Assembly: GCA_029569495.1 (NCBI GenBank) | Contig: JAKQTB010000118.1 | Location: 3,628-67,627, forward strand | Length of the DNA stretch: 64,000 nucleotides | From: Pseudomonadota bacterium | Lineage (GTDB): Bacteria > Pseudomonadota > Gammaproteobacteria > Burkholderiales > Methylophilaceae | Direction of reading: 5' to 3' | Part shown: piece after piece, positions 986 to 60,968 of the stretch | How the letters are laid out: the number at the start of each line of letters is the position of its first letter | Position numbering within the stretch: position 1 is the first letter of the stretch | Notes under the pieces: model-generated | Database searches by the model: none | Told to the model about the DNA's origin: nothing | The model's input: the letters and a program-made list of their open reading frames with translations, nothing else | Position numbers and translations under genes: made by a program

Positions 986-1049
986 CTACTTTAACGCTGC
1001 CCTGCAAGCCTTAATTTATAAGGCTCACAGGGCAGCGTTTTTATCTCGG
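986..1049 (+). repeat. 64-bp hairpin repeat, copy E1 (hairpin flipped, left flank degenerate)
   Basis: cgctgccctgcaagcc-ttaatttataa-ggctcacagggcagcg followed by tttttatctcgg. Confidence 0.8.
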
Positions 1050-1072
1050 GTGGATTAAGCCAACTATTTTTT

Positions 1073-2023
1073 CTAAATCAGCGCAGTATTTTCTTCTAAT
1101 AAATGTTGCGCTTGTTCAAGGTGTAGCTGCGTACTTTTGATGTAATCGAGTAGCAACACACTGTCTTCTTCATTGATTTGTGCCACGCGCACGGTTAAGC
1201 CCATTGGCGCAAACATGAGTTTTAGCCATTGTTCGCCCATTTTTTCAATGGCGTGGTCAAAGGCTTTGAGTTCAACGCCGTTGTTAATGCGTTGGTTTAA
1301 ATCTTCACGGTGCGCATCGCTGGCGTGCATGAGCTCGTTGCTATCAAGATTGATGTTGATGCGATTGGGCATGACTAAATTATTTTCATGAATCTGCAAT
1401 TGGCGAAAAAGCCACTCTTCAGTATTGGCAGAAACACCTTGGTATTGCGCGCGCAGTTTGTCCACCAGCAGTTCTTTGCCAATTTGCTGCACACGGATGT
1501 GCGCTAAATCAAGGCCCAGCATGGCTTTGGCTTTTTTACGAATCACGCCGATATATTGCGTTGAGGTTTTACCACCCAGCGTTTTTTCGCGCTCGCCTAA
1601 ATCTTCTTGCTTAAAATCGGTGAGGGATAAATCCACTTCAAGTAGCGTGAGTTTTAGCACGGCCTGAATCTGCTGAAACTGCATTTGCTGTGATTTAATG
1701 CGCTCCAGTTCAATCACCAGTTTGGCTTTGTCTTTGAGCACTTTTTGCATTTCGCTGGCAAGTTGTTTTTGCCGCTCCACGTCGGCAGACACCAGTAGTT
1801 TTGGCAATGTTAAGCTGATGATCAACGCGCCTAAACCAGCACCAATGGCGGCAAGCAGTACCGCGACGCTTTGTTTGTCTAATAGCAAACTGAAGGCGAT
1901 AAATAATACCGCGATACCCACGCCAGTGGCAAAAAACATGCGATAGCCAAACTTTTTGAGTGGTGCAAAAAGCTTAAATGGTGCGGTGAGTAATTTTGTG
2001 AGCATGTGTTGGGTCTTAAGCAT
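1073..2023 (-). CDS. membrane protein with N-terminal TM helices, coiled coil and a DUF4230-like C-terminal half (family tentative)
   Basis: 316-aa ORF with a hydrophobic N-terminus and a heptad-rich middle. No catalytic motif recognised. Confidence 0.5.
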   Translation of the reverse strand: MLKTQHMLTKLLTAPFKLFAPLKKFGYRMFFATGVGIAVLFIAFSLLLDKQSVAVLLAAIGAGLGALIISLTLPKLLVSADVERQKQLASEMQKVLKDKAKLVIELERIKSQQMQFQQIQAVLKLTLLEVDLSLTDFKQEDLGEREKTLGGKTSTQYIGVIRKKAKAMLGLDLAHIRVQQIGKELLVDKLRAQYQGVSANTEEWLFRQLQIHENNLVMPNRININLDSNELMHASDAHREDLNQRINNGVELKAFDHAIEKMGEQWLKLMFAPMGLTVRVAQINEEDSVLLLDYIKSTQLHLEQAQHLLEENTALI

Positions 2024-2230
2024 GATTGGATAATTATTTTACTAAGCTTGATTGTAAGGTAATGCCCAAAAGAAGCAAATTAAATCAGTAAGTAAGCAAG
2101 TGAATGGCTTATAATTTGTGCTGTATTTACCGTCTTAAGTTAACCCAAAACCAATCATTTACGCATGCATTTCACACAAACACTTTGTAAAAAAAGGCCC
2201 TTAAACTTAACCGTAATAGGGTTGGTATAA

Positions 2231-2803
2231 GTGGCGTTAGTTACCACGCGTATCCTTGGTATTGACCCCGGCCTGCGCTTGACCGGGTTTGGTGTCATTG
2301 AAAAGGTTGGTGAAAAAATCGTTTACGTGGCAAGCGGCACCATTAAAACTGCAAGCGGCAAAAAAAATGCCGTTGAGGGCGAGGCCGATAGAGAAGAATT
2401 GCCAGCACGGCTAAAAATTATTTTAGACGGCCTGTTTGAAGTGATTGATACTTATCAACCAACGCAGGTGGCGGTTGAAAAGGTGTTTGTGAATGTAAAC
2501 CCGCAATCTACCCTGCTGCTCGGCCAAGCGCGTGGCGCGGCCATTAGCGCGGCAGTGATTCGCAATTTAATTGTGGCGGAATATACCGCGTTGCAGGTGA
2601 AGCAGTCGGTGGTGGGGAATGGTCACGCACAAAAAGAACAAGTGCAAGAAATGGTGAAACGTTTGCTCAATTTGCCAGCCACACCCAAGCCAGATTCTGC
2701 CGATGCACTGGCTTGTGCGATATGCCACGCACACGGCGGGCAAGGCCTTGGTAGGTTGGCCACGGCTGGTTTTCGCGTCAAGGGCGGGAGGCTGATTGGG
2801 TGA
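2231..2803 (+). CDS. ruvC: Holliday junction resolvase RuvC
   Basis: Motifs [16 protein letters not shown] and [17 protein letters not shown] start. The stop overlaps the next start. Confidence 0.9.
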
Positions 2804-3756
2804 CAAACAATGCGAAACTGTTGCTTGAACCTGCCATTGGCACTTACGCCAATAATATTACTAAGTATTTTTTTGCTACAAGGCCAGCGTTTTTGCTAGC
2901 CGCTTTGGCCGCGTGTTTGCTAGGTTTGGCAAGTGCAAAACTAAGTGGCGTTAATCTGAATGTGGCTTTTGCAATGGCGACAATACTGCTGGCGTTAGTT
3001 GTGCATGCCGCAGTGAACGTCCTTAACGATTATTTTGATGCGTTAAGTAGTGCAGATGCTTTTAATACCGAGCGCGTTTATCCTTTTACAGGTGGCAGTC
3101 GTTTTATTCAGAATGGCCTGTTTACGCCGCAACAAACTGCACGATTTGGCTATGGGTTGTTGCTCGTTGCCATGTTGGGTGGGCTATGGTTGGTGGCTGA
3201 AGTCGGCAAAGGTCTTTTGCTAATTGGTGGCGTTGGTCTATTCATTGGCTGGGCGTATTCGGCCACACCGTTAAGCTTAAATAGCCGCGGTTTAGGCGAG
3301 GTGTGCGTGTTATTGGGTTTTTTAGGTGTGGTAATTGGGGCCGATTTTGTGCAGCGCATCAGCTTTTCTTGGCAGCCTGTGTTTGTGGGGTTTCCCTATG
3401 CATTGCTGGTGACGAACTTGCTTTTTATCAATCAGTTTCCTGATTATAAAGCCGATAAGCTGGCCGGCAAGCATCATTGGGTTGTGCGCTTGCCACTGAC
3501 AACAGCCGCAAATATTTACCCAATATTGGTATTGCTCGCATGTGTTTGGCTGCTCGCGATGGCGTTGTTACAAAGGCTGCCAGCAATGACACTATGGTCA
3601 GCGTTGCCGCTACTATTTGCATTGCGCGCGGCTTGGCTTTTGCAACAACATTATGCTGAACCTGCAAAATTACGCCCAGCGATTCAGTTAACCTTGCTTG
3701 CCATGCTGGGCCATGCCTTACTATTAACTTTATTATTATTTTGGAATGCAAGATGA
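2800..3756 (+). CDS. UbiA-superfamily (MenA-like) membrane prenyltransferase
   Basis: Polytopic membrane ORF with Asp-rich motifs NDYFD and [10 protein letters not shown]. Its start overlaps the ruvC stop and its stop overlaps the ruvA start (ATGA). Confidence 0.7.
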
Positions 3757-4328
3757 TTGCCAGACTTAATGGAATACTGATTGAAAAATCTCCTCCGCAA
3801 ATCGTGATTGATTGCAATGGCGTGGGCTACGAGGTCGAGGTGCCAATGAGTACCTTTTACAATTTGCCAGAATTAGGCAGCAAAGTGAATTTGCTGACTT
3901 ATTTTGTGGTGCGTGAAGACGCGCAACTGCTGTATGGTTTTGGTAGCGAACAAGAAAAAAGTACGTTTAAACAATTGCTTAAAGTCAATGGCATTGGTGC
4001 TAAATCGGCGTTGTCTATTTTAAGTGGCGTAAGTATTGATGATTTGATTCAGGCGGTGAGCATGCAAGAGGTCGGCATGCTCACGCGCATTCCCGGCATT
4101 GGCAAAAAAACTGCGGAGCGTTTACTGCTCGAACTCAAAGACAAATTCAGTGTGGCAGGCTTGGCGCAAACCGCCAATCAGGCAAAGTCTGCCATGCATG
4201 ACATCCTCAATGCACTGGTGGCTTTGGGCTACAATGAGCGCGAGGCGCTGGCCGCCGTTAAATTGCTAGACAAAGAAGTGAGCGTGACCGATGGGATTAA
4301 GCAGGCGTTGAAAAACCTTTCAAAATAA
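3753..4328 (+). CDS. ruvA: Holliday junction DNA helicase subunit RuvA
   Basis: Typical N-terminus MIARLNGIL at ATG 3753 (track ORF starts at 3741). HhH motif [12 protein letters not shown]. Confidence 0.9.
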
Positions 4329-4358
4329 CAACAAAACATTGAAGCAATGTGAGGATGA

Positions 4359-5258
4359 GTGATGAAAAGTTATCTAATTTTTATTGTTAGCTTAGTCGTG
4401 TTTTTGGCGGCGTGTGGCCAGCAACAGCCACCCGTGCCAACGGTAGCGATGGCACCAGCGCCCGCCGAGATGGCAAGAACTAAAATGGCCAGTGCTGATT
4501 CAGTGGCCGTTGCGGGTGAAGGTGAGCAGTCACTTACAGAACTTACAGAGCCTGCTACTGCTCAAAGCGAGGTTAAACGCTTTATCGCATTACGCCATCA
4601 CATGGTGGTGGAAACGCCAACAGAACAAATGCAAGCAAATTTTGATGCCACCGTTGCGCATTGTCAGCAGCTCAAGTGCCAAATTTTGTCGGCCAATTAT
4701 AATCGTGAAACAGCTTATAGCCCGCCATCGGCAAGCCTGTCAGCGCGTATTCCACCAAGATCAGTAGCGGTGTTCTTAGCAGGCCTAGCTAAAAGTGGAG
4801 AAGTCTTACAGCATCACCGTAGCAGCGAAGATAAAACCGATGCGGTGATTGATGCAGAGGCGCGCATTAAAAACCTGACCGAGTTTCGTGATAATTTGCG
4901 CGCAATGCTGAGCGATAAATCTGCCAAATTTAAAGATTTAATCGAAGTGCAGCGTGAGTTAGTCAACACGCAAAGTGAGTTAGATGGTATTCAGGGTGTG
5001 CGCAAAGTGCTGGCGCAAGAAACCGAATTGGTGGCGATTAATATTGATTTTACTGCCAAGCAAGGCATTACTGAGCAAGGCTTTTTTTCACCCGTTGCAC
5101 AAGCTTTTAAAAATGCTGGCCACGTAATGATGGAAAGTTTAGCGAGCGTGATTACTTTTTTTGTAACAATTTTGCCGTGGCTTATTTTTGGCATTCCAGC
5201 ACTGATTTTAATACGCAAACTTTGGGCTAAAATTAGAACAAAAAAACCGCATGTATAA
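4359..5258 (+). CDS. DUF4349-like lipoprotein
   Basis: Signal peptide with lipobox LAAC, coiled-coil middle and two C-terminal TM helices. Confidence 0.55.
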   Translation: MMKSYLIFIVSLVVFLAACGQQQPPVPTVAMAPAPAEMARTKMASADSVAVAGEGEQSLTELTEPATAQSEVKRFIALRHHMVVETPTEQMQANFDATVAHCQQLKCQILSANYNRETAYSPPSASLSARIPPRSVAVFLAGLAKSGEVLQHHRSSEDKTDAVIDAEARIKNLTEFRDNLRAMLSDKSAKFKDLIEVQRELVNTQSELDGIQGVRKVLAQETELVAINIDFTAKQGITEQGFFSPVAQAFKNAGHVMMESLASVITFFVTILPWLIFGIPALILIRKLWAKIRTKKPHV

Positions 5259-5307
5259 ACTTGGCGTAATACATTAATTTACAATTTCAAACGGGTATAA
5301 TACGCAC

Positions 5308-5371
5308 AACCTTTTTGAATGCTCTGGAAGCCTTGTAAATAAAGGCTCGCAGAGCAGTATTTTTGTCTCGG
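5308..5371 (+). repeat. 64-bp hairpin repeat, copy E2
   Basis: aacctttttgaatgctctggaagcc-ttgtaaataaa-ggctcgcagagcagtatttttgtctcgg. Confidence 0.9.
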
Positions 5372-5470
5372 GAATTTTATTGCGGTTTTTGTGATGTTTT
5401 TGTGTAATCAATCAGTTTGTTTTGTGGGTTAAATGTGAGTCAATATAAAAATAAAAATAGCGTATTTTCA

Positions 5471-6403
5471 ATGTGGTTTGCCTGCTGCTTTTTTGCGGTA
5501 ATGTGCCTATTTTCTGAGGTGGCGCTAGCTTATACAGGCGTGACGATTGTCATGAGCAGCAAAACTGAAGCGAATCTGGCGTTTGTTGAGCAGTTTAAGA
5601 CAGAGCTAGCCGGCAATGAAAATAATACACTAAATCTAAAAGTGATTGAGTTGCCAGCACGCAAAAGGCTCGTGGTGGCTGAAAATAGTGAATTGGTGAT
5701 TGCGTTGGGTGCAAAGGCGCTTGAGGCCGCCAGCAAGTTATCGCATACAACGCCGGTTTTGGCAGTGCATACGCCGTCATTAGCCTATGAGCAGATATTA
5801 GAAAAAAGTCGGCGTGATGCGAGTAATATGAGCATGATTATGCAAAATCAGCCTTATGCGCGCCAAATAAATTTTATTCAATTGGTGCTACCGGCGGCAA
5901 AAAATATTGGCAGCTTAGTCAATGGCAACTCGCAAACATATGCGGAACAGTTGAAAACACAGGCTGATAAAAAAGGACTCAATGTGCAGTTAACGCACTT
6001 AAATGATCCATCGATGTTGATACCGGAGCTTAAAACTTTGTTAGAGGCGAATGATGCATTGCTGGCGATACCAGATACAGCTGTTTATAAACCCGATACG
6101 GCGCAATCCATTTTGATGACTAGTTATCAGTTTAAGAAGCCAGTGCTTTGTTATTCACTCTCTTATGCGAAGGCGGGCGCACTGGCGGCGTTATATAGCT
6201 CTAGCCGGCATTTGGCCAAGCAGGCCGCGGAAATTGCGCAGCAATCGCAAAATGCAGAAAGCGCCCTGCCATTGCCGCAAGCGCCAAAATATTTTTCTGT
6301 GTACGTCAATCGGCAAGTGGCGCGTTTGCTCAATATTGAAGTGAACAAAGATGTGGCAATTTTTCAAGAATTAATAGCCACTGATAATTTGCAAAATGAA
6401 TAA
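5471..6403 (+). CDS. periplasmic ABC-type substrate-binding-like protein (PF04392-like, tentative)
   Basis: The track ORF starts at TTG 5417. ATG 5471 precedes a signal-peptide-like segment. The stop overlaps the start of the GGDEF-EAL gene. Confidence 0.5.
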   Translation: MWFACCFFAVMCLFSEVALAYTGVTIVMSSKTEANLAFVEQFKTELAGNENNTLNLKVIELPARKRLVVAENSELVIALGAKALEAASKLSHTTPVLAVHTPSLAYEQILEKSRRDASNMSMIMQNQPYARQINFIQLVLPAAKNIGSLVNGNSQTYAEQLKTQADKKGLNVQLTHLNDPSMLIPELKTLLEANDALLAIPDTAVYKPDTAQSILMTSYQFKKPVLCYSLSYAKAGALAALYSSSRHLAKQAAEIAQQSQNAESALPLPQAPKYFSVYVNRQVARLLNIEVNKDVAIFQELIATDNLQNE

Positions 6404-8540
6404 TATTGGCATTAAAGCGAGGGTGATTTTTTTAGGCACAGTGCCTGCCCTGCTGTTTGCGATTATTTTAATCGGCTACATAATTTCAAATATATTTGGC
6501 ATATTGAATCAATCGCTGGTTGACCGCGGAAAAATCATCGCTACTCAACTTGCCCCTGCTGCTGAATACGGGGTGATTTCTGGAAATCGACAAATGCTGC
6601 AAAAACTTGTGCAGCAAGCGCTTGATAACGAGCAAGATCTTAAAACGGTGATGGTCGTTGATAATCAAGGATTAGTGCTGGCCTACAGTGGACAGGCGAT
6701 TCCTGAAACGCTGATTAGCAAAATCATGCAGGAAAATTTGCCTGAGTACAAACAAGCACGCGGCATCATTTTTTCTGCGCCTATTCATCGAAGTTTAGTC
6801 GAGATTGATGATTTTTCGTCCCAAGAAGAAAATACGCAACAACTGAAAAAAGATTTTTCACCTGAAAAAATCGGTCAGATTTATGTGGAACTAAGTAATC
6901 AAGGACTGCAGAGCTATAAGTTAGTATTTGTCGTAAAAATTGCATCAATTGCTTTATTGGGGCTGTTGCTCAGTGGCTGGCTAGCTTGGCGTATCGGCCG
7001 AAATATTACACAGCCTATTCAAGAAATTGCCCGTGCAGTCAATAAAGTGCGCGAAGGTGTGTTGTCACAAACGTTGGTAGAAAACTCCAGCGGTGAATTA
7101 AAAACCTTACAAAAGGGCTTTAATTCAATGTCGGCGAGCTTGAAGCACGCCTATGATGTGATGCAAGATAAGATTAACGATGCCACCTCTATGCTGCGCC
7201 ATCAAGCGCAACATGATGATTTAACTGGGCTTATTAACCGTCGAGAATTTGAAGTGCGCTTAGAGCGCTGCCTCAAAACTGCTAAAGAAAACAATGCAAA
7301 GCACGTGTTTTGCTTTCTGGATTTAGATCAATTCAAGTTAGTGAATGACACGAGTGGGCATATCGCGGGGGATGAACTACTTAAACAAGTGAGTGTTTTA
7401 CTGGCCATCCGCATGCGTGAAAGAGACACGTTAGCCCGTTTAGGCGGGGATGAGTTTGGCCTGCTGTTGGAGAACTGTACGCAGAAAGAAGCCGACCAAA
7501 TTTGCAGTGCAATTCAACGCATTATTCGCGATTTTCGTTATAGCCATGACGACAAAATCTTTAATATTGGCGTGAGCATTGGTATGGTGGTGATTGATGA
7601 CCATTTTGACAGTGTTAGCGAAGTGGTACACGCGGCAGATATGGCGTGTATGGCCGCGAAAAAGGCGGGACGTAATCAAACGGTGCTATTTAACGCAGGC
7701 GATGTTGAAGTGGTCGAGCAGAAAAATGCAGTAGAAGCGATTGCCGACATCACGGATGAAATCGATGATGATCAGTTTATGCTGTACTGTCAGGCGATTG
7801 TACCGCTCACGCCGAATTTACCGCATTTACCTAATATGCCGGCCATTCCACAGCAACATCACTATGAGATTTTGCTCAGAAAAGTAGATTTAGACGGCAA
7901 GATTATTTTGCCGACGACGTTTATTCCCTCAGCCGAGCGCTATCATCTGATGCCTAATATTGACCGCTGGGTGATTAAAAATGCTTTTATTGCCTATCGA
8001 AAACTGCTTGATATTGATTACGAACACTGCAATTACATCTTTTCAATCAATTTATCGGGCACGTCATTGGGTGACCAAAGTCTGTTGCCGTTTATTCGCG
8101 AACAGTTTGCTAAATACGCTATTCCGCCCGCCTCGATATGCTTTGAAATTACCGAGACGGCGGCCATTGTAAACCTTAAAAATACCATTTTATTGTTTAA
8201 CTCACTGCGTGAAATTGGCTGCAAATTTGCTTTAGATGACTTTGGCAGTGGCATGTCTTCATTTATGTATTTAAAGAATTTTGATGTTGATTACCTTAAA
8301 ATTGATGGCGCTTTTGTCAAAGAGATTCATCAAAACCGGATTGATCATGCCATGGTGCGTTCCATCCACAATGTGGCAGAATCGATGAACATCAAAACGG
8401 TTGCTGAATTTGTGGAAAGTGATGCAATATTGAAACAGCTAGAAATTATCGGCGTGCACTATGGCCAAGGGCTGCATCTTGGCTTGCCGATTACTGTGAA
8501 AGAATTGATTCAACAATATGCTGAATTACATCCGCGCTAA
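6396..8540 (+). CDS. membrane HAMP-GGDEF-EAL cyclic-di-GMP turnover protein
   Basis: N-terminal TM, periplasmic segment and second TM. Intact GGDEF (RLGGDEFGLL). EAL-domain motifs EITET, DDFGSG and KIDG. Confidence 0.85.
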   Translation: MNNIGIKARVIFLGTVPALLFAIILIGYIISNIFGILNQSLVDRGKIIATQLAPAAEYGVISGNRQMLQKLVQQALDNEQDLKTVMVVDNQGLVLAYSGQAIPETLISKIMQENLPEYKQARGIIFSAPIHRSLVEIDDFSSQEENTQQLKKDFSPEKIGQIYVELSNQGLQSYKLVFVVKIASIALLGLLLSGWLAWRIGRNITQPIQEIARAVNKVREGVLSQTLVENSSGELKTLQKGFNSMSASLKHAYDVMQDKINDATSMLRHQAQHDDLTGLINRREFEVRLERCLKTAKENNAKHVFCFLDLDQFKLVNDTSGHIAGDELLKQVSVLLAIRMRERDTLARLGGDEFGLLLENCTQKEADQICSAIQRIIRDFRYSHDDKIFNIGVSIGMVVIDDHFDSVSEVVHAADMACMAAKKAGRNQTVLFNAGDVEVVEQKNAVEAIADITDEIDDDQFMLYCQAIVPLTPNLPHLPNMPAIPQQHHYEILLRKVDLDGKIILPTTFIPSAERYHLMPNIDRWVIKNAFIAYRKLLDIDYEHCNYIFSINLSGTSLGDQSLLPFIREQFAKYAIPPASICFEITETAAIVNLKNTILLFNSLREIGCKFALDDFGSGMSSFMYLKNFDVDYLKIDGAFVKEIHQNRIDHAMVRSIHNVAESMNIKTVAEFVESDAILKQLEIIGVHYGQGLHLGLPITVKELIQQYAELHPR

Positions 8541-9728: not shown

Positions 9729-9792
9729 CCGAGAAAAATTTATGGCTCTGTAAGCCTTTATTTATAAGGCTCACAGAGCATCGAAAAAGGTT
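9729..9792 (-). repeat. 64-bp hairpin repeat, copy E3
   Basis: Reverse complement reads aacctttttcgatgctctgtgagcc-ttataaataaa-ggcttacagagccataaatttttctcgg. Confidence 0.9.
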
Positions 9793-9922
9793 GTGCTGTA
9801 AATTGCCTAAAAATTAAGCAATTTCAGTGTGCTCAAAGCATCTGCTATTTTGTCATTTTTGAAACAATTACTTAACAATTTGACACGCCACCATATTAAG
9901 TTGGCTGTGTTAAAATTTGCCC

Positions 9923-12495: not shown

Positions 12496-13779
12496 ATGAA
12501 AATATTTAGATTTTTAGCTTTTTTTACTTCATTTTTCGCATCAACATTCTTATTTACTCCCGTCGCCAACGCTGCTTTGGAAATTGAAATCAGCGGGGGT
12601 AGCGCACAGCAAATTCCAATCGCCATTGTGCCTTTTGGGCAAGGTGAGCATGCCGCCACCATGAGCGGCATTATTGCCGCTGACTTAAAGCGTAGCGGTT
12701 TGTTTCGTGTGCTTGAAACTGGTGGTGTGGCTAGTCGCCCAACCGATATTACGCAAATTAAATTTGCTGAGTGGTCGGCATTACAAGCCCAAGCCATGTC
12801 GGTTGGCACCATTGAGCCACAAGCGGATGGCAAGTTAAAAGTATCGTTTCAGTTGGCCGATGTGCTAAAACAAACGCAGCTTACCAGCGGTCAATATAAT
12901 ATTAGCCCAAGCCAGCTAAGAATTACCGCACATAAAATTGCCGATGCGATTTATCAAAAACTTACCGGTGAATCAGGTATTTTTGCCAGCCACATTGCTT
13001 ATATCAACAAATCAAAAGGCCGCTACACTTTGCAGGTGGCCGATGCGGATGGTGCGAACCCGCGTACGATGTTGTCATCAAAAGAGCCGATTATTTCACC
13101 TGCCTGGGCGCCAGATGGCAACCGCATTGCCTATGTTTCTTTTGAAAAGAAAAAACCGATTATCTATGTACAAACTCTGGGCGGACAACGTACCACCGTG
13201 GCGAGCTTCAAAGGCAACAACAGCGCACCTGCTTGGTCGCCAGATGGTAATAAGCTCGCTATTGTGCTCACGCATGGGGCTAATTCGCAGTTATATACCA
13301 TTAATGCAGATGGCTCAGGCTTAAAGCAGGTGACTAAGAGTTCTGCCATTGATACCGAACCGACATGGTCAACCGATGGGCAGTGGATTTATTTTACCTC
13401 TGACCGTGGTGGCCGCCCGCAAATTTACAAGGTTTCATCACAAGGCGGTGACCCAAAACGGGTGAGTTTTGAAGGCGCTTATAATGTAAGCCCGCGTTTT
13501 TCACCAGATGGTAAATCATTAGCGATGATTCGTAATGATGGCGGCAGATTCCGCGTGGCGCTGCAAGATTTAAACAGTGGTCAAGTGCAGTTGCTAAGCG
13601 ATGGCGGCCAAGATGAGTCGCCCAGTTTTGCGCCAAACGGACGCGTAATATTGTATGCTACCCGTAACGGTGGCCGTGGCGCATTGGCGGCGGTGTCGGC
13701 CGATGGGCGCGTGAAACAGCGCTTAAATGAGTCTGGTGGCGATATTCGCGAGCCGGCTTGGGGCCCTTTGATTAAATAG
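12496..13779 (+). CDS. tolB: Tol-Pal system beta-propeller protein TolB
   Basis: Signal peptide and repeated SPAWSPDG/SPRFSPDG propeller motifs. Confidence 0.9.
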   Translation: MKIFRFLAFFTSFFASTFLFTPVANAALEIEISGGSAQQIPIAIVPFGQGEHAATMSGIIAADLKRSGLFRVLETGGVASRPTDITQIKFAEWSALQAQAMSVGTIEPQADGKLKVSFQLADVLKQTQLTSGQYNISPSQLRITAHKIADAIYQKLTGESGIFASHIAYINKSKGRYTLQVADADGANPRTMLSSKEPIISPAWAPDGNRIAYVSFEKKKPIIYVQTLGGQRTTVASFKGNNSAPAWSPDGNKLAIVLTHGANSQLYTINADGSGLKQVTKSSAIDTEPTWSTDGQWIYFTSDRGGRPQIYKVSSQGGDPKRVSFEGAYNVSPRFSPDGKSLAMIRNDGGRFRVALQDLNSGQVQLLSDGGQDESPSFAPNGRVILYATRNGGRGALAAVSADGRVKQRLNESGGDIREPAWGPLIK

Positions 13780-15413: not shown

Positions 15414-15478
15414 TCGAGAGATTTTTGATGCTCTGTAAGCCTTTATTTATAAGGCTCGCAGAGCAGGTCAAAAGGGTT
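15414..15478 (-). repeat. 64-bp hairpin repeat, copy E4 (flanks diverged)
   Basis: Reverse complement reads aacccttttgacctgctctgcgagcc-ttataaataaa-ggcttacagagcatcaaaaatctctcga. Confidence 0.85.
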
Positions 15479-15613
15479 GTGACTATTTAAGCACATCATT
15501 TTTCATTTTTACGAACCTTGTTTGTTTGCCGATTGCGCTTATATTTTAAACAGCCTTTGGCTTTCGCGGTAAAATAGCGCCAACGCAATTGTTGGCATTT
15601 TTTATCATCTCTC

Positions 15614-18169: not shown

Positions 18170-18907
18170 ATGGCTTATCAGTTTTATGTAGTAACGTTAT
18201 TTCCTGAAATGTTTGAGGCCATTACCCAGCATGGCATTACCAGCAGGGCGTTGCAACATAATATTTATCACGTGCAGTTTTGGAATCCACGTGATTACAC
18301 TACTGATAATCATAAAACGGTTGATGACAGGCCGTATGGCGGTGGCCCTGGCATGGTGATGCTGGTTGAGCCGCTCGAAAAGGCAATAGCGGCTGCAAAG
18401 ACGGCGCAACAAGAAAAGCATATAGAAAGTTGGGTTGTCCATCTTTCACCAGCGGGAAAGCCGCTGACGCATCAAAAAGTGATGCAGTTAAGTAAAAAGC
18501 CAGGCTTAGTATTACTGGCTAGCCGTTATGAAGGGGTTGACCAACGCCTGATTGATGCTGAAGTAGATGAAGAAATATCCATTGGTGATTATGTTCTAAG
18601 TGGCGGAGAGTTACCTGCCATGGCATTAATGGATGCGATTATTCGCCAATTGCCAGGAAGTTTAGGGGATGGGGATTCGGCCATTGAAGATTCATTTGTC
18701 GATGGATTGTTGGATTGCCCACACTACACTAGGCCTGAAGAATATAAAGGTGTCAAAGTGCCTGAAGTGTTGTTATCAGGCAATCATGCAAAGATTAAGC
18801 AGTGGCGTTTAAAAGCGGCATTGCAAAGAACTCGGGATTTACGTCCCGATTTATTGGCCGTAAGGCCGTTGACGAAAGAAGAAACACGACTGCTACAGCA
18901 TGATTAG
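18170..18907 (+). CDS. trmD: tRNA (guanine37-N1)-methyltransferase TrmD
   Basis: TrmD family sequence and synteny. Confidence 0.9.
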
Positions 18908-19972: not shown

Positions 19973-20872
19973 ATGGCGTTAGAAAGCGCAGAAGCCCAGC
20001 AGTTAGATAGCTTTATTGACCACCTTTGGTTAGAAGATGGCCTATCCAAAAACACGCTTGAAAGCTATCGCCTCGATTTAACCAGTTTCACACATTGGTT
20101 GCCCACACAAAAAAAACAGTTACTCACAGTTGAAGAAACCGATATTCAACAATATCTCGCGGTTAAATTTCCACAAAGTAAGCCACGCAGTATCAGCCGA
20201 TTGATAGCCACTTTGCGGCGTTTTTATCGTTATTGTTTGCGTGAAAATCTTATTAAAACAGACCCGACCATTCAAATTCAGTCGCCTAAGTTGCCTCGTA
20301 GTTTGCCCAAAAGCCTGAATGAAGAAGAAGTCATCGCGCTACTCAACGCGCCTAATTTAAATGCGCCAGCAGGCATACGCGATAAAGCTATGCTGGAGCT
20401 ACTGTACGCCTGCGGTTTGCGGGTATCAGAGCTGGTCAACATTAAAGCGACCGAAGTGAGCATCAATGATGCTGTTGTAAGGGTGACGGGAAAAGGCAGT
20501 AAAACGAGATTAGTGCCAATGGGTGAAGATGCAGCCGATTGGATTTCACGTTATTTGCGTGAGGCAAGGCCAGCGTTGCTGCATAAACGGCTGTGCGATG
20601 CGCTGTTTGTAACTAATCGCGGCGAGGCGATGACGCGCCAAGCTTTTTGGTATTTGATTAAACGCTATGCCTTGCTGGCTGGCATTACCAAGCCTATGTC
20701 GCCACACGTATTGCGCCATGCGTTTGCCACGCATTTGCTGAATCATGGCGCCGATTTACGTGTAGTACAAATGTTGTTAGGGCATGCGGATATTTCAACC
20801 ACGCAGATTTATACGCATGTGGCGCGGGAGCGATTGAAGCAATTGCATAGTGTGCATCACCCACGAGGATAG
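19973..20872 (+). CDS. xerD: site-specific tyrosine recombinase XerD
   Basis: Motif RHAFATHLLNHGADLRVVQMLLGHADISTTQIYTHV. Housekeeping context. Confidence 0.85.
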   Translation: MALESAEAQQLDSFIDHLWLEDGLSKNTLESYRLDLTSFTHWLPTQKKQLLTVEETDIQQYLAVKFPQSKPRSISRLIATLRRFYRYCLRENLIKTDPTIQIQSPKLPRSLPKSLNEEEVIALLNAPNLNAPAGIRDKAMLELLYACGLRVSELVNIKATEVSINDAVVRVTGKGSKTRLVPMGEDAADWISRYLREARPALLHKRLCDALFVTNRGEAMTRQAFWYLIKRYALLAGITKPMSPHVLRHAFATHLLNHGADLRVVQMLLGHADISTTQIYTHVARERLKQLHSVHHPRG

Positions 20873-20927
20873 GTGTGGTTGCATCATTTAAATTGTTAAC
20901 GCCTTAACGGCTAAATGCAAAATCGAG

Positions 20928-21281
20928 TTATGTTTTTGCTCGCTCAACGACCACTCCCAACGATTTTAACCCTGCCAAAATCGCAGGCTTAGCCACTTTT
21001 ACCTTCACGTTTAACGCACCAAATTCTTGTAAAATCAATTGGCAAATATGCTCAGCGAGGGCTTCTACTAGCTGAAAGCTGTGTTCTGATAATGTTTCGC
21101 GAATGCGACCCACCACAGCGCCGTAGTCGATGGTGTCGGCAATCGCGTCGCTTTTGCAGGCCTTAGTTAAATCGTAGCCAATCTCAATGTCTAAAATAAT
21201 GGTTTGCGCGGTCATGCGTTCCCATTCTGGCACGCCCAGTTTGGTCTGTACTTTGAGTTCGCTAATAAAAATGGTGTCCAT
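20928..21281 (-). CDS. folB: dihydroneopterin aldolase
   Basis: FolB-like 117-aa ORF, divergent from plsY as in many proteobacteria. Confidence 0.8.
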   Translation of the reverse strand: MDTIFISELKVQTKLGVPEWERMTAQTIILDIEIGYDLTKACKSDAIADTIDYGAVVGRIRETLSEHSFQLVEALAEHICQLILQEFGALNVKVKVAKPAILAGLKSLGVVVERAKT

Positions 21282-22029: not shown

Positions 22030-22093
22030 AACCTTTTTTGATGCCCTGCGAGCCTTATAAATAAAGGCTCGCAGGGCATAAATTTTTTCTCGG
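22030..22093 (+). repeat. 64-bp hairpin repeat, copy E5 (perfect stem)
   Basis: aaccttttttgatgccctgcgagcc-ttataaataaa-ggctcgcagggcataaattttttctcgg. Confidence 0.95.
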
Positions 22094-23161: not shown

Positions 23162-23353
23162 GAATGGTGATGGATGAACTGTAAAGGTTGAATTATTGCG
23201 CATTTAACTGATTAATGCATAAAAGTAATTGAATAAAAACAATTATGCGATTAAAATAGTCGGCTTTTCTCAGTTTATAAACCTTGCATGTGCAAAATGG
23301 TTAAGAACTTGAGCATAATTTAAACTAACTTCTTACCAAATAAGAGAGATTGA

Positions 23354-23566
23354 ATGTCTAGTGTACGCGTAAAAGAAAATGAGCCGTTTGACGTTGCCCT
23401 TCGCCGTTTTAAACGCTTAATCGAAAAAACTGGTTTATTGAATGATCTTCGCGCACGCGAATTTTATGAAAAACCAACTTGGGAACGTAAACGTAAAGCT
23501 GCAGCCGCAGTTAAGCGTCAATATCGTCGCCTGATGAAGCAAACATTGCCAGCTAAACTTTACTAA
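23354..23566 (+). CDS. rpsU: 30S ribosomal protein S21
   Basis: Canonical S21 sequence. Confidence 0.95.
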
Positions 23567-23575
23567 GTTAGTCTG

Positions 23576-28217: not shown

Positions 28218-28245
28218 ACATAAATAAAAATATACAAAAGGTTTT

Positions 28246-28324
<79 letters not shown>

Positions 28325-28334
28325 ATATAAAAAA

Positions 28335-28364
28335 GGCTTGCAGCGATGTAAGCCTTTTTCTTTT
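28335..28364 (+). terminator. intrinsic terminator after tRNA
   Basis: 8-bp stem ggcttgca/tgtaagcc followed by TTTTTCTTTT. Confidence 0.65.
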
Positions 28365-28488
28365 CAATAAATTTTTTACGTCAACCTTGAAGCCGCGTTA
28401 GTAAGTAGATTAAAGGGCTGTTTGTAATTTACCGCCCAGTCATTGGATACTAATATAGAATCAAGCTTCTTCCTTAATTCAAGTGTAG

Positions 28489-31025: not shown

Positions 31026-31890
31026 CGTTCAACAAGAAAATGATTGTTGCTTGTCGCTGGAAATGTTTAACGGCGACCTGCCACAGCGTCATGCAAATGC
31101 GCACAAAGGCACTTTTGGCAGTGTTGCTGTAATCGGTGGAGCTACCGGCATGGTCGGGTCGGTTTTGTTGGCCGCGCGCGCGGCACTGCACAGCGGAGCT
31201 GGCCGCATATATGTGGCACTGTTAAGTGAAAACGCCCCCGCAGTTGATTTTATACAGCCAGAAATCATGCTACGCGCTTTAGACGACATTGTGCAATTAC
31301 CACAATTAAATTGCCTAGTGATTGGCCCCGGTTTAGGTCAGTCAATGGTGGCGATTAAGCAACTTGAATATTGGGTGAATCAAAGTGTTCCAATTTTGCT
31401 TGATGCAGACGCGCTCAATCTTATTGCTAGTCAGCCACATTTAGCGAGCGCAGTAGCTAGCCGCACTTCACCAACAGTGATGACCCCACATGCGGGTGAA
31501 GCAGGGCGTTTGCTGGCTTTCAGCACTGAGGCGGTGACGCAAAATCGGCTAGAAAGCGCAATAATACTTGCCGAAAAGTTTAACGCGATATGTGTACTTA
31601 AAGGCGCGGGTACGCTCATTGTGCAAGACAAGCATCATTACTTTATCAACACCACTGGTAACGTCGGGCTGGCAAGTGGCGGCACAGGAGACGTATTAAG
31701 TGGCATCATTGGCAGTTTAATGGCGCAGGGCCTCGCGGCAATCAATGCTGCAAAACTTGGTGTTTTTGTGCATGGTGCGGCGGCTGATGCGCTGGTAAAA
31801 AAAGGGATTGGCCCTATTGGGTTAACAGCCTCAGAAGTTATTTTGGAAGTGCGTCATCAGCTAAATCAATTGCACAAAAACGTAGCATAA
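31018..31890 (+). CDS. nnrD: ADP-dependent NAD(P)H-hydrate dehydratase
   Basis: Motifs HKGTFGSVAVIGG and GGTGDVLSGIIG. Overlaps the upstream gene by 8 nt. Confidence 0.8.
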   Translation: MHNVQQENDCCLSLEMFNGDLPQRHANAHKGTFGSVAVIGGATGMVGSVLLAARAALHSGAGRIYVALLSENAPAVDFIQPEIMLRALDDIVQLPQLNCLVIGPGLGQSMVAIKQLEYWVNQSVPILLDADALNLIASQPHLASAVASRTSPTVMTPHAGEAGRLLAFSTEAVTQNRLESAIILAEKFNAICVLKGAGTLIVQDKHHYFINTTGNVGLASGGTGDVLSGIIGSLMAQGLAAINAAKLGVFVHGAAADALVKKGIGPIGLTASEVILEVRHQLNQLHKNVA

Positions 31891-31950
31891 CTTTTTAGAT
31901 GCTCTGGAAGCCTTTATTTACAAGGCTCACAGAGCATTTATTTTTTCACG
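31889..31950 (+). repeat. 64-bp hairpin repeat, copy E6 (hairpin flipped; clips the nnrD stop codon)
   Basis: aactttttagatgctctggaagcc-tttatttacaa-ggctcacagagcatttattttttcacg. Confidence 0.85.
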
Positions 31951-31982
31951 TAGATTTTCTTTGTTGATTTGAATAAAAATAG

Positions 31983-33365: not shown

Positions 33366-33976
33366 TCTCCCGAGCTGGATTGGTCTTCTTGGTATTCTTT
33401 ATTGAGCGCTACGCGTATTGCTTCCAGTTTTGCTTCATAGTTGTCAGCTTCGCCGTATTCTAGAAAGTGCGCATAACGGCTATGTGTGCCTAAAATTTTG
33501 CGTGCGTGTTTAATGGGGCAGAAATATTGCTCAGTTCGCGCCACAATTTCACTAATGTAGGCAATCATGCCTGTGCCGTAGGCGCAGTAAGTGCAATGAA
33601 ACTTTTCAATAAAATTAAGATAATTGAGCTGCTGACGGTCAAAAATAATGTAGTCAGAACGTTTTACTTTTTTAATCCCGTAGATTGGAAAGCAGGTGAG
33701 TTGATAAAAGGTGATAAATAAATCCGTGATGAGTAAAGGCACAATCATTGAATAAATAATGGGCCCCGTAATTAAGTTTTGTGGCCTATCGGTGATGAGC
33801 CAGCGAAAGAAATTTCGTTTTAGCCGACGATGCGTTTCTTTGATGGATTGTTCAAACTCAACGCGTTTACCTTTAATTTGAAAAAATATACTGGATTGTT
33901 GTTCGTTAAGGGCTGTGCGAAGCTCATCTTCGAGCGAGGTGATTTGGGCTAACAGTTGCTGAATACGGTCGTTCAT
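33356..33976 (-). CDS. uncharacterised membrane protein with coiled coil and Cys/His-rich C-terminal region
   Basis: 206-aa ORF. Its stop overlaps the MBL gene start by 10 nt. Contains a TM hairpin and the motifs HCTYCAY and YFCPIKHA. Confidence 0.5.
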   Translation of the reverse strand: MNDRIQQLLAQITSLEDELRTALNEQQSSIFFQIKGKRVEFEQSIKETHRRLKRNFFRWLITDRPQNLITGPIIYSMIVPLLITDLFITFYQLTCFPIYGIKKVKRSDYIIFDRQQLNYLNFIEKFHCTYCAYGTGMIAYISEIVARTEQYFCPIKHARKILGTHSRYAHFLEYGEADNYEAKLEAIRVALNKEYQEDQSSSGDCK

Positions 33977-36175: not shown

Positions 36176-36239
36176 ATGAGAAAAATTTAATGCCCTGCGA
36201 GCCTTTATTTATAAGGCTCGCAGGGCAGCGAAAAAGGTT
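36176..36239 (-). repeat. 64-bp hairpin repeat, copy E7 (perfect stem)
   Basis: Reverse complement reads aacctttttcgctgccctgcgagcc-ttataaataaa-ggctcgcagggcattaaatttttctcat. Confidence 0.9.
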
Positions 36240-41901: not shown

Positions 41902-42167
41902 ATCAACCTTAGGGGCTAGCATCATAGATTGCCCTTTTCAATATAGGCCTAGTAACAGTGCAACCACAGTAGCAAGAATATGCGCCCTAAGAAATCCGCG
42001 CGAACACGTATAGTTTGCGGGAGATTCTTTTTGAAGAAAATGAGGTGCGTTGGCTTTGAGAGGGGTATTTGGCTGAGTAGTTTGTCGCCAAAATGTTGGG
42101 GCTATATTCGTTGTGCCTAAGGTTTTAGTTTCAACTGAACCATCGGCGCAACGATTATTTAAAAGCG

Positions 42168-44256: not shown

Positions 44257-44320
44257 AACCTTTTTCGATGCTCTGGAAGCCTTGTAAATAAAGGCTTCCA
44301 GAGCATAAATTTTTTCTCGT
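44257..44320 (+). repeat. 64-bp hairpin repeat, copy E8 (perfect stem)
   Basis: aacctttttcgatgctctggaagcc-ttgtaaataaa-ggcttccagagcataaattttttctcgt. Confidence 0.95.
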
Positions 44321-51415: not shown

Positions 51416-51682
51416 TGGATTTACAGCCTAATTATTTGGTTTATCGTGTTGGAATCTAGCAACGCAGTCTAGTAAAAAAGTTAAATGATGTCCAATCATT
51501 ACAGATGCATTCTCCAGTTTTTGATATAAGGGCTTGCCCTTACGTGCTAGCCCGAATTTACGTAGAGGGTTTAGTCCAGTACATTGCAAGTGTCGATGGT
51601 GCTTAACTTGCAACGGCTAGTTGCACTAATCCCCCTAGATGAGTGCCGTCGACATTTTTTGGTGTAAGCGAGGAGAAATGCG

Positions 51683-51928
51683 ATGCAACTTTCAAAAGTT
51701 ACACAGCTTAACGCAAATAACCCAATTCCTGTGTATGGGGTTGAAGCCAAAGAAAAAAAACAAGTTAAAGCCAAGGCTGAAAGTAAGAAAACAGAAGTGG
51801 CGGTGGACGGTCAAGAGATGAGTTGTCGTGTGGCGATGTGCGCTTACTTTAAAGCGGAGGCGCGAGGTTTTGAGCCCGGCTATGAGTTAGAAGATTGGCT
51901 AGCGGCAGAGGCTGAGGTGGGGAAATGA
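51683..51928 (+). CDS. DUF2934-family small protein
   Basis: C-terminal motif YFKAEARGFEPGYELEDWLAAE. Confidence 0.6.
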   Translation: MQLSKVTQLNANNPIPVYGVEAKEKKQVKAKAESKKTEVAVDGQEMSCRVAMCAYFKAEARGFEPGYELEDWLAAEAEVGK

Positions 51929-56981: not shown

Positions 56982-57062
56982 AGTACTTGGGCATAGTATT
57001 TTTAATCTTTATTATATAAAAAATACTTCTTTAAAATCCTTTAATTTAAACACAACCTTTTT

Positions 57063-57126
57063 CGATGCCCTGCGAGCCTTTATTTATAAGGCTCACAGGG
57101 CGTTATTTTTTTCTCGGACGATTTTC
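57063..57126 (+). repeat. 64-bp hairpin repeat, copy E9 (hairpin flipped)
   Basis: aacctttttcgatgccctgcgagcc-tttatttataa-ggctcacagggcgttatttttttctcgg. Confidence 0.9.
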
Positions 57127-58826: not shown

Positions 58827-58835
58827 TATAAAGCC

Positions 58836-59507
58836 ATGCGAATACTGTTAGTTGAAGATGATGCCCTGTTGGGCGATGGTGTGCGGGCAGGTTTAAAGCA
58901 GGCCGGCTTTGCGGTGGATTGGTCGCAAGATGGCCAAGTGGCAAAGTTGGCACTAGAAACTGAAGAATATGCGGTGGTAGTGCTTGATTTAGGCCTGCCA
59001 AAATTAAGCGGTACAGATTTGCTTAAATGGTTGCGTGCAACGCTTTCTAAAGTGCCGGTGTTAGTGCTTACTGCGCGTGATACCGTTGCCGACCGTGTGT
59101 CTGGCTTAAATGCGGGTGCAGATGACTACTTAATTAAACCGTTTGATTTAGACGAGCTGATTGCCCGTATCAATGCGCTGTTACGTCGCAGTGCAGGCCA
59201 AGTCACGCAAAACTTACAGCATGGCAACATTATTCTGACGCCCGCCACGCATCAAGTGACGCAGCATGGTAAAAGTGTCGATCTATCAGCGCGAGAATTC
59301 ACTTTGCTGCACGAACTTCTGTTGCACGCGGGTCGCGTGCAATCGCGCGAGCAATTAGAGCAACATTTGTACGGCTGGGGTGAAGAAGTTGAAAGCAACT
59401 CGATTGAAGTGCATATTCACCACTTACGAAAAAAACTCGGCAGTGATTTGATTCGCACCTTACGTGGCGTCGGATATGTGATTGATCAGGATGCGTCCGA
59501 AAAATGA
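58836..59507 (+). CDS. OmpR-family response regulator
   Basis: Receiver domain plus winged-helix domain. Confidence 0.85.
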   Translation: MRILLVEDDALLGDGVRAGLKQAGFAVDWSQDGQVAKLALETEEYAVVVLDLGLPKLSGTDLLKWLRATLSKVPVLVLTARDTVADRVSGLNAGADDYLIKPFDLDELIARINALLRRSAGQVTQNLQHGNIILTPATHQVTQHGKSVDLSAREFTLLHELLLHAGRVQSREQLEQHLYGWGEEVESNSIEVHIHHLRKKLGSDLIRTLRGVGYVIDQDASEK

Positions 59508-60880
59508 ATTCACTAAGACTACGCTTGGTTTTATTGTTGTCCGCAGGCCTCGGCCTTGTGTGGTTGGTTGCTGCATGGTTTACGCATTTGGAATCGCGCG
59601 AAGAAATTGACCGCTTATTTGATGCACAGCTCGCGCAATCTGCCCAAGTGCTATTAGGCACTACGCGGCATGAAATACACGAGCGCATTGAGCATGGTGA
59701 AGAAGAAATTGCCATCAAACACGAGTATGAGCAAAAGTTGGCTTTTCAGATTTGGGATGAGCATGATTTATTGATGCGCTCAACTTCTGCACCCACCACG
59801 GTGATGGGCAGCAATCGGGAAGGCTTTAGCGAAGCCATCATTGATGACGCTGCTTGGCGGGTGCTCACGCGTTGGGATTCGCACCATGAATTTATGATAC
59901 AAGTGGCTGAGCCTTTATCTGGTCGCGAGGCGTTGGCGCGGCATATTACACTGAAGATGTTCATGCCTACATTTTTTGCGTTGCCCGTGCTGGCATTGCT
60001 CATTTGGTTTGGTGTGGGCGCAGGCTTAAAACCATTAAATACGCTTAAACAAGAAGTCAAACAAAGAACCGCAAATCGCCTTGAACCAGTGGCAATGACG
60101 GACGTGCCTGAAGAAGTGGCGCCTCTGATTCAGTCGTTAAATGATTTATTTGCCCGATTAGCAGAAGCCTTTGATGGCGAGCGCCGTTTTACGGCAGATG
60201 CCGCACATGAATTACGCACGCCGCTCGCAGCGCTCAAAATTCAAGCACAAGTTGCCCTGCGTGCAAAAGATGATGCAGAACGCCAAAAGGCACTAGAAAA
60301 TGTATTACACGGTGTAGACCGTGCAACTCGGCTGGTTGAGCAATTGTTAACCTTGGCTAGAGTGGACCCAGAAACTGCACTCACGCACTATCATCCGCTC
60401 GATTTGCGTGCGTTGGCGAGTGCAGTCTTGGCTAATATGGCGCCGCTCGCGCAGGCAAAAAAAATTGAGCTGCAATTGGCCGAGGGTGGCGTATGTCAGG
60501 TGGTCGGCGATGAAGATCAACTCGGGTTGTTGCTACGCAATTTATTGGACAATGCCATTCGCTACACACCAGATGGCGGCCAAGTAAGCGTGAAAGTTTA
60601 TGAAGGCCATGTGGCTGAAACTACGGTGTATGAAAGCCAAACGCCCAAAAATACTGGCACGGTACTTGAAATTACAGATACTGGGCCAGGTATTTCACCG
60701 GCAGAGCGCGAACAGGTACAAAAGCGTTTTTATCGAATTGCCGGCAGTGGCGAAGAAGGCAGCGGTTTAGGGCTGTCGATTGTGCAACGCATTGCCACGT
60801 TACATGGCGCGACGCTGGAACTTCAAGATAGGCCGCAAGGCCATGGCTTGCTGGTCAAAGTCATTTGGCCTTCAAAGTAA
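59504..60880 (+). CDS. membrane sensor histidine kinase (QseC/PmrB-like architecture)
   Basis: Two TM helices, periplasmic loop, H-box AHELRTPLAAL and an ATPase domain. ATGA overlap with the regulator gene. Confidence 0.85.
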   Translation: MNSLRLRLVLLLSAGLGLVWLVAAWFTHLESREEIDRLFDAQLAQSAQVLLGTTRHEIHERIEHGEEEIAIKHEYEQKLAFQIWDEHDLLMRSTSAPTTVMGSNREGFSEAIIDDAAWRVLTRWDSHHEFMIQVAEPLSGREALARHITLKMFMPTFFALPVLALLIWFGVGAGLKPLNTLKQEVKQRTANRLEPVAMTDVPEEVAPLIQSLNDLFARLAEAFDGERRFTADAAHELRTPLAALKIQAQVALRAKDDAERQKALENVLHGVDRATRLVEQLLTLARVDPETALTHYHPLDLRALASAVLANMAPLAQAKKIELQLAEGGVCQVVGDEDQLGLLLRNLLDNAIRYTPDGGQVSVKVYEGHVAETTVYESQTPKNTGTVLEITDTGPGISPAEREQVQKRFYRIAGSGEEGSGLGLSIVQRIATLHGATLELQDRPQGHGLLVKVIWPSK

Positions 60881-60904
60881 GGTTTTTTTCACTTTTTTCA
60901 TACC

Positions 60905-60968
60905 AACCTTTTTTGATGCTCTGCAAGCCTTATAAATAAAGGCTTGCAGAGCAGTAAAATTTTCTCGG
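60905..60968 (+). repeat. 64-bp hairpin repeat, copy E10 (perfect stem)
   Basis: aaccttttttgatgctctgcaagcc-ttataaataaa-ggcttgcagagcagtaaaattttctcgg. Confidence 0.95.

Follow-up and report, generated by a model that had tools for sequence, protein, structure and literature searches.

The small bacterial repeats closest to the element described here are REP (repetitive extragenic palindromic) elements of gamma-proteobacteria with their BIME and REPIN forms; REP and BIME elements have side-roles as terminators or stabilisers of mRNA 3' ends and as gyrase or IHF sites. Other systems invite comparison as well: uptake signal sequences (USS), the sites of which have helically phased AT-rich tracts beside a conserved core; the Correia element, which combines terminal inverted repeats of 26 bp with a TA duplication and an IHF site; ERIC, a 127-bp imperfect palindrome; and the hairpins in which chloroplast loop inversions and quasi-palindrome template switching occur, where the loop flips in situ and the arms are corrected to complementarity. 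A REP element is recognised by a GT(A/G)G tetranucleotide head 5' of its palindrome (Nunvar 2010, PMC2817692). REPs of the RAYT-associated kind also have a cognate RAYT (Y1/HUH transposase) gene in the same genome, usually with repeats on either side. The 64,000-nucleotide stretch analysed here (contig JAKQTB010000118.1 of the Methylophilaceae assembly GCA_029569495.1, positions 3,628 to 67,627; hereafter the window) carries ten copies of an intergenic hairpin repeat belonging to a real and previously uncatalogued family. With moderate confidence, we interpret this repeat as a REP-like dispersed DNA palindrome that forms a new family of one Methylotenera clade.

Structure of the repeat and the nature of its constraint

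Searching the window with a degenerate hairpin pattern of 40 nt yields 10 matches, against none in 100 shuffles that preserve dinucleotides. The covariance model R1, constructed from 74 members of the family and run over the whole window with filters off, returns exactly the 10 copies at 70 to 89 bits, the runner-up scoring 17 bits. The ten copies reported in the initial annotation are thus genuine, and the strands it gave from flank orientation and its consensus sequence agree with ours. Nine of its coordinate sets are accurate to within 1 nt; copy 9, which it had at 57063-57126, was placed 9 nt too far right and lies at 57054-57117.

The conserved block is about 64 nt long, with high information from -21 to +43 relative to the start of a 19-nt core. 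Its units follow one another in the order CAACC, T5-6, a 15-bp GC-rich arm (GATGCYCTGNNAGCC), an 11-nt AT loop, the complementary arm, A0-5, T4-8 and CTCGG, the CTCG(G) box being nearly invariant and about 10 nt 3' of the hairpin. Because the outer boxes are not mutual inverted repeats, each copy has a defined flank orientation. The same 16-bp hairpin folds on both strands, with RNA energies of -32.5 and -32.3 kcal/mol (z-scores -8 and -6) and near equal DNA folding energies of -21.2 and -20.9 kcal/mol. With the asymmetric flanks as reference, a feature overlooked earlier becomes apparent, namely that the loop occurs in two forms: seven window copies carry TTRTAAATAAA (form A), and copies 1, 6 and 9 carry its reverse complement, TTTATTTAYAA (form B).

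Stem covariation, which the initial annotation had inferred from the window copies, is real. Its particular observations hold: the Y:R stem pair reads C:G four times and T:A six times among the ten copies, and the central dinucleotides of the four perfect copies are CG/CG twice, GA/TC and CA/TG. In the alignment of 74 copies, 89% of stem cells are paired and none of 500 shuffles reaches the observed covariation score. More specifically, pair 19-49 is C:G in 29 copies, U:A in 29 and U:G in 11, pair 15-53 is A:U in 37 and C:G in 15, and the two central stem pairs are hypervariable, with 28-31% unpaired. The Y:R pair appears to go with pair 15-53, as read by eye from the listed copies, so part of the covariation probably reflects subfamily structure.

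The suggestion that this covariation marks a structured RNA is not supported. A selected RNA helix tolerates G:U and not A:C. Over 14 stem pairs in 77 copies, read in flank orientation, there are 941 Watson-Crick pairs, 40 G:T and 41 A:C; the G:T and A:C counts are 43 vs 38 in loop orientation and 20 vs 24 in the sense of the surrounding mRNA. Because G:U is no commoner than A:C on any strand, these counts argue against a constraint on one RNA strand. In the same way, a loop conserved in either orientation would be expected if double-stranded DNA, both loops of a cruciform, or DNA hairpins of either strand mattered, and is unexpected of a transcript. The covariation is real but strand-symmetric, and therefore points to a DNA palindrome rather than RNA. 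Thus, textbook-like covariation in a repeated hairpin need not imply structured RNA, and a strand test of G:U against A:C, joined to loop orientation, tells a DNA palindrome from an RNA.

The ten copies are listed below with coordinates, strand, context and R1 score; handles beginning with L denote related loci.

Copy 1, 986-1049, plus strand: gap between yebC and a convergent gene; form B loop TTAATTTATAA, inverted relative to the flanks; 69.8 bits.
Copy 2, 5308-5371, plus strand: tandem gap, co-oriented with the genes; form A loop TTGTAAATAAA, central dinucleotide mismatched; 76.2 bits.
Copy 3, 9729-9792, minus strand: ruvB-ybgC gap, antisense to both; form A; orthologous copy in L028; 81.1 bits.
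Copy 4, 15414-15478, minus strand: cpoB-queE gap, antisense to both; form A; orthologues in L005 (form A), L028 (flipped loop, form B) and L075 (different loop); 71.9 bits.
Copy 5, 22030-22093, plus strand: convergent plsY/tsaD gap; perfect 16-bp hairpin, form A; orthologue with a variant loop in L075, outgroups having a much shorter gap without the element; 88.8 bits.
Copy 6, 31888-31951, plus strand: convergent gap, overlapping the nnrD stop codon; form B; orthologous form B copy in L037; 72.2 bits.
Copy 7, 36176-36239, minus strand: convergent gap between a dksA-like gene and a BCAM0308-family gene; form A, perfect stem; 81.7 bits.
Copy 8, 44257-44320, plus strand: between a usp-like gene and nhaA, both on the minus strand, and antisense to both; form A, perfect stem; 83.7 bits.
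Copy 9, 57054-57117, plus strand: tandem gap, co-oriented with the genes; form B; 82.1 bits.
Copy 10, 60905-60968, plus strand: 3' of a histidine-kinase gene in a tandem gap, co-oriented; form A, perfect stem; 84.8 bits.

All ten are intergenic as first described, including the overlap of copy 6 with the nnrD stop codon. The genes that flank them are ordinary chromosomal ones: yebC, ruvCAB, ybgC-tol-pal-cpoB, queE, plsY, tsaD and nnrD, and further a beta-CASP RNase gene, the dksA-like gene, nhaA, usp, cbpA, the histidine-kinase gene and copA. Two other open reading frames (ORFs) of the window stand out, one of 316 residues at 1073-2023 (minus strand) with neither a Pfam nor an NCBIfam match, and one of 206 residues at 33356-33976 (minus strand) without a match in Pfam, the only collection scanned for it. 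Ten copies in 64 kb correspond to one per 6.4 kb, and by extrapolation hundreds of copies per genome are plausible.

Perfect or near-perfect AT-rich palindromes, ACAAACTGCTTAATATTTAAGCAGTTTGT at 951-979 and AAATTGCCTAAAAATTAAGCAATTT at 9800-9824, adjoin copies 1 and 3, and the one beside copy 3 is also kept in L028. The possibility that these GCYTAA..TTARGC palindromes form a second repeat family was dropped, the core being too rare elsewhere.

Distribution, descent and genomic setting

The repeat extends beyond the window, as the initial annotation had anticipated: a core-pattern scan of species-representative genomes yields at least 74 loci in at least four related species known as metagenome-assembled genomes (MAGs). 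Among the matches listed, almost all lie in four such species labelled Methylotenera or Betaproteobacteria (USOA134_metabat.83, MFD13448 bin13, HGW-Betaproteobacteria-20 and P-RSF-NP-04), and four matches, from bins with Bacteroidota and Arenimonas labels, probably reflect contamination during binning. A search blind to the loop, over the 506 kb of window and scan loci, finds 93 elements with the canonical loop and 1 with a divergent one. To these can be added 978 kb of sequence from 80 metagenome loci, each with TolB (86-56% identical to the window protein) at its centre, searched with R1. Only two of the 80 tol-pal loci hold the family, L075 with four copies and L119 with one, and the other 78 are without it. 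The window's exact TolB protein is present in many assemblies, including MAG GCA_029562015.1. The family is restricted to a narrow Methylotenera clade.

No Rfam family falls on any copy, either at the gathering threshold or at E<=5, and the novelty first supposed on the strength of the window alone is upheld to that extent. Plasmid and phage collections contain no match to the repeat. Literature searched with organism and repeat terms and with literal loop-plus-stem strings has no description of it, and the supplements of RAYT survey papers do not mention Methylophilaceae. The 19-nt core has 25 matches in IMG/VR, which have only a small AAGCC-loop-GGCTT hairpin in common; because the arms and flanks are absent they were excluded as chance. 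Methylophilaceae are abundant freshwater methylotrophs, and the repeat adds a REP-type system for this family, none having been described in Rfam or the literature searched. The covariance model can be used to mask or annotate repeat sites in MAGs. Contigs break inside or beside the repeat in about 10 of the 74 loci (for example L009, L010, L018, L019, L021, L040 and L069), which suggests that it breaks short-read assemblies of MAGs.

Comparison of orthologous spacers is revealing of the history of individual copies. Parts of the window are syntenic with L028, L037 and L005 (85%, 84% and 76% nucleotide identity), and these loci hold copies at the spacer positions of copies 3, 4 and 6; L017 and L055 are another such pair. 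In the most distant comparison, window against L005, the element is 88% identical and its 110-nt flanks 59-66%. A rare flank variant at the copy-4 site, TTTTGAC...AAAAATCTCTCGAG, is common to the window, L028, L005 and L075, and copy 4 is therefore of common descent in all four. The spacers themselves are clade-specific, since the gaps abut or are short in outgroups: the ruvB-ybgC gap measures 265 bp in the window and L028 and about 0 bp in relatives with TolB at 82% identity or less, and the plsY-tsaD gap measures 139 nt in the window, about 5-10 nt in L076 and L077, and up to about 130 nt, without the element, in other outgroups.

The loop follows a course of its own. It is almost invariant across species whose spacers have fallen to about 60% identity, yet it occurs in either orientation. 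Form A is found in 46 and form B in 28 of the 74 copies (about 38% inverted), and every well-sampled genome has both (A:B of 27:18, 11:4 and 7:3). At the copy-4 site the flip has taken place in situ, the loop of L028 being opposite to that of the window and L005. Four assemblies that agree exactly in TolB also have the same copy 4; flipping is therefore slow, and fast flipping in the manner of phase variation was rejected. In L075, all four copies have a loop of the type ARTATCYATGC (AATATCCATGC in flank orientation at the copy-4 site), among them those at the orthologous cpoB-queE (copy 4) and plsY-tsaD sites. The cpoB-queE site of L075 has retained its site-specific flank variant, GAGAGATTTTT. 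In L110, a relative with 74% TolB identity, a short hairpin at 449-477 in the ruvB-ybgC gap bears the exact L075-type loop (CTGTAAGCC-GCATGGATATT-GGCTTACAG) and has neither T-runs nor boxes.

Gene contexts across the family were assigned by a long-ORF heuristic, by which all but 2 of 64 classified copies are intergenic. The 62 copies with two neighbours divide into 26 tandem co-oriented, 14 tandem antisense, 20 convergent and 2 divergent, and for 46 of these 62 the upstream neighbour ends in the sense orientation. Occupancy of spacers of at least 120 bp is 21 of 28 for convergent, 40 of 85 for tandem and 3 of 23 for divergent ones. Copies lie at a median of about 49 nt from the stop codon of a gene and more than 110 nt from a start codon. 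They are single, the nearest pair being 436 bp apart (L058), and show no orientation bias relative to local GC skew (29 vs 22). The statement that copies fill nearly every gap longer than 150 bp is roughly correct for the non-divergent gaps of the window and fails for five gaps without a copy: 2024-2230, 23204-23575 and 51416-51924 (all divergent), 28218-28488 (with a tRNA inside) and 41926-42167.

Outside the 64-nt block, the sole positional signal is T-richness with a period of about 11.5 nt, peaking at about -64, -41, -30, (-15), (+35), +49, +60, +71, +82, +94, +106 and +118. These tracts lie on the same strand as the T-runs of the element, and their phase is unchanged whether the context is co-oriented, antisense or convergent. 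Element-free spacers in the window and in L001-L074 have a weaker T-tract periodicity of about 12 nt; phasing is therefore general to spacers, and at copies it is locked to the element. The pattern suggests that intergenic DNA may be generally curved in these genomes.

Other features of these spacers and their neighbourhood can be recorded here. Directly upstream of queE, at 15568-15603, a hairpin with a T-run (GGTAAAATAGCGCCAAC..GTTGGCATTTTTT) is kept in nearly all TolB-centred relatives, even those without the repeat, and has no Rfam match; it could be a queE leader or attenuator, or the terminator of the tol-pal operon. A strong promoter-like site (TTGACA, 17 nt, TGTTAAAAT) at 9880-9916 precedes ybgC and tol-pal, is kept in L028, and lies within the 265-bp spacer, which is lacking in relatives with abutting ruvB and ybgC. 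In the sister lineage, L075 has an ORF of 1348 residues on the opposite strand (3351-7397) inserted between ruvB and ybgC. L075 also has an extra copy at 18210-18280 that abuts a gene ending in ...HHPRG*, the window equivalent (20870-20930) being empty. The CCGAG box there (L075:18233) consists of conserved P-R-G codons that are present also where the site is empty, and this one case hints that CTCGG might be a pre-existing target motif and not part of the moving DNA.

Interpretation and alternative explanations

A REP-like dispersed DNA palindrome fits best with the restriction to one clade, siting at gene 3' ends in either orientation, vertical persistence, symmetric palindromy, and conserved boxes some 10 nt away from the hairpin foot; it also fits best with a loop that was replaced lineage-wide while local outer flanks survived. 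According to this interpretation, the repeat would have increased in number in the ancestor shared by the clade, where it filled or created spacers behind genes, and would have been kept in place since. The constraint would act on DNA, either strand forming the same hairpin as a cruciform or as single-stranded DNA. Loop replacement with surviving flanks and the loop inversions jointly suggest that short tracts are copied between arms or between copies; since the arms are palindromes, such copying can align either way round. Template switching or conversion from arm to arm or copy to copy, or alternatively a hairpin-specific enzyme, could hold the arms complementary while the loop is sometimes inverted or replaced. 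The anatomy, the distribution, the conservation at orthologous sites, the inversion and replacement of the loop and the strand symmetry are observed; past mobility, the conversion mechanism and any trans-acting protein are what we infer beyond these observations. As a by-product, a copy read forward (hairpin, then U-run) would be a strong intrinsic terminator, and one read in reverse would supply a stable 3' hairpin only; judged from its sequence, the forward orientation probably does act as a terminator.

Several points weigh against this interpretation. Copies are identical among strains with identical TolB and common to several species, and so give no sign of recent transposition. No RAYT/Y1 match came from a tblastn search in which E. 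coli RayT was compared with the window and with partial genomes totalling 1.73 Mb, a weak negative; likewise, the ORFs between closely spaced copies, judged by eye from length and N-terminal sequence, do not look RAYT-like. The GT(A/G)G head is absent from the consensus on either strand (TTTTTYGATGC... or AAATTTATGC...). Neither a target-site duplication nor a copy-specific terminal inverted repeat was found, the means being 6.69 between own flanks and 6.61 in controls for direct repeats and 6.65 and 6.70 for inverted ones, although the fuzzy boundaries leave room for a duplication of 2-4 bp. The concerted loop change is known from four copies on a single contig (L075), the protein partner and the cruciform are proposed, and the conservation of the element above its flanks could be selection for termination. 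An apparent long direct repeat around copy 5 (GCTTAATTCACCTAAAT vs GCTTTTAATTCGCCTAAAT), with a possible ancestral duplication of the tsaD 3' end, was set aside as not general across copies.

The principal alternative is a family of intrinsic (Rho-independent) terminators, in which hairpin and U-run end the transcription of the upstream gene and one design has been copied or homogenised genome-wide; we consider this possible but rather unlikely. The forward strand of five window copies folds at -22 to -34 kcal/mol and is followed by T4-8, and the succession of upstream U-rich run, hairpin and 3' U-tail resembles the Hfq-binding module of small RNAs. The siting described above is also what terminators would show, with 46 of 62 copies after a sense 3' end at a median of about 49 nt past the stop, convergent gaps mostly filled and divergent ones avoided; the excess of co-oriented over antisense tandem copies (26 vs 14) is weak. 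The distant relative L114 has an ordinary terminator 3' of cpoB (12819-12886), the arm of which, ATACCCAGCAAACC, resembles the repeat arm ATGCCCTGCGAGCC and which may be a relic or the source of the family. However, about one third of the tandem copies (14-15 of 40-42) are antisense and have no U-run after the hairpin, and G:U in the sense of the mRNA is not above A:C. The conserved 11-nt loop, the invariant CTCG box and the CAACC box are superfluous for termination (the CTCG box is not needed by a terminator), a copy survives reverse-complementing of its loop, and the phase-locked T-tracts run about 85 nt beyond the terminator. A simple terminator scan of 20 kb recognised copy 3 alone among the four copies there and is uninformative.

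A bolder version of the REP-like interpretation, which we hold to be unlikely, is that a previously undescribed hairpin-specific DNA transaction maintains the family. An enzyme or replication-coupled process would recognise the CAACC ... CTCGG-framed hairpin in single-stranded or cruciform DNA and carry the hairpin alone, by copying or re-pasting, from one dispersed copy to another on either strand. Arrays of phased T-tracts would turn the loci into curved, extrusion-prone landing pads at gene ends. If true, one mechanism would cover the invariance of the loop within a lineage, its wholesale swap in the sister lineage and the inversion of about 38% of loops, and the same mechanism would cover the complementarity of the arms on two strands and the surviving site-specific outer flanks.

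It is doubtful that the repeat is instead a structural DNA site at gene ends for a protein that wraps DNA or binds cruciforms, gyrase or a nucleoid protein for instance, by analogy with the BIME-2/REP gyrase sites of E. coli. The hairpin core would serve as the recognition or cleavage centre and the phased T-tracts as curvature for wrapping, which accords with T-tracts locked to element orientation at about 11.5 nt across about 150-190 bp. The element stands in either orientation relative to genes, its loop is kept in either orientation as if double-stranded DNA or both cruciform loops were read, convergent gaps are preferred, and the constraint is strand-symmetric. Yet a protein that reads double-stranded DNA needs no compensatory changes in the arms, the weaker periodicity is present in element-free spacers too, the different loop of the sister lineage would demand co-evolution of the protein, and protein binding is conjectural.

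A classical miniature inverted-repeat transposable element, that is, an element derived from a DDE insertion sequence, not autonomous itself and bearing both terminal inverted repeats and target-site duplications, would likewise be short, multi-copy, intergenic, in both orientations and confined to one clade, but is highly improbable given that direct or inverted repeats are no commoner between a copy's own flanks than between unrelated ones, that the ends CAACC-T-run and T-run-CTCGG are not mutual inverted repeats, and that there is no transposase nearby and no recent insertion was seen.

Other readings were discarded by eye. The loop TATAAA taken as a -10 box with the upstream AT patch does not make a promoter, the spacing and the -35 box being a misfit, and IHF and H-NS motifs do not fit. 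Integron attC sites have RYYYAAC ... GTTRRRY boxes and lie in cassette arrays beside an integrase, whereas the boxes here are CAACC and CTCGG and the copies are scattered among housekeeping genes.

Comparison with known systems

Correia (CREE) and ERIC elements are like the Methylotenera repeat in being small intergenic repeats, possible terminators and lineage-restricted; they share neither its architecture nor its sequence, and the test for duplications and inverted repeats is negative here. The exclusion of both, and of classical GTAG-headed REPs, in the initial annotation is accordingly sustained. DNA uptake sequences (DUS) in inverted pairs in Neisseria, and USS pairs in Pasteurellaceae, are alike in that a repeated sequence forms a terminator hairpin behind many genes. 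An uptake sequence was nevertheless rejected: the arms of the repeat vary with compensation and its loop is constant, the opposite of an uptake signal, and it is found about once per 6 kb, with all window copies intergenic and a conserved block of 64 nt, whereas DUS and USS are short invariant motifs that recur about once per kb and are common inside genes.

With REP, BIME and REPIN elements, the repeat has in common short GC-rich imperfect palindromes in an estimated hundreds of copies, extragenic and clustered after gene 3' ends in both orientations. Palindromy is kept by compensated changes in both, the sequence is lineage-specific even at shared positions, and vertical persistence is long. 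Unlike a REP, the Methylotenera repeat is without the GT(A/G)G head, has its loop in both orientations, and is flanked by conserved T-runs and CAACC/CTCGG boxes. Its hairpin of 15-16 bp with an 11-nt AT-only loop contrasts with the shorter palindromes and short central loops of the REPs tabulated in PMC2817692, its copies are single and form neither the inverted doublets nor the arrays of REPIN and BIME, and no RAYT was found in the tblastn search described above. Membership of the REP/RAYT family proper is thus not established.

The in-situ inversion, the loop replacement and the phase-locked T-tracts are handles on the homogenisation of palindromes and on supercoiling and termination at gene ends. 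For the first of these, small inversions in chloroplast DNA are a direct likeness, with the same in-situ loop flip that is seen here at the copy-4 site. Those and other quasi-palindrome cases are mutational events at unique hairpins, whereas the Methylotenera repeat is a multi-copy family in which the loop sequence is otherwise constant.

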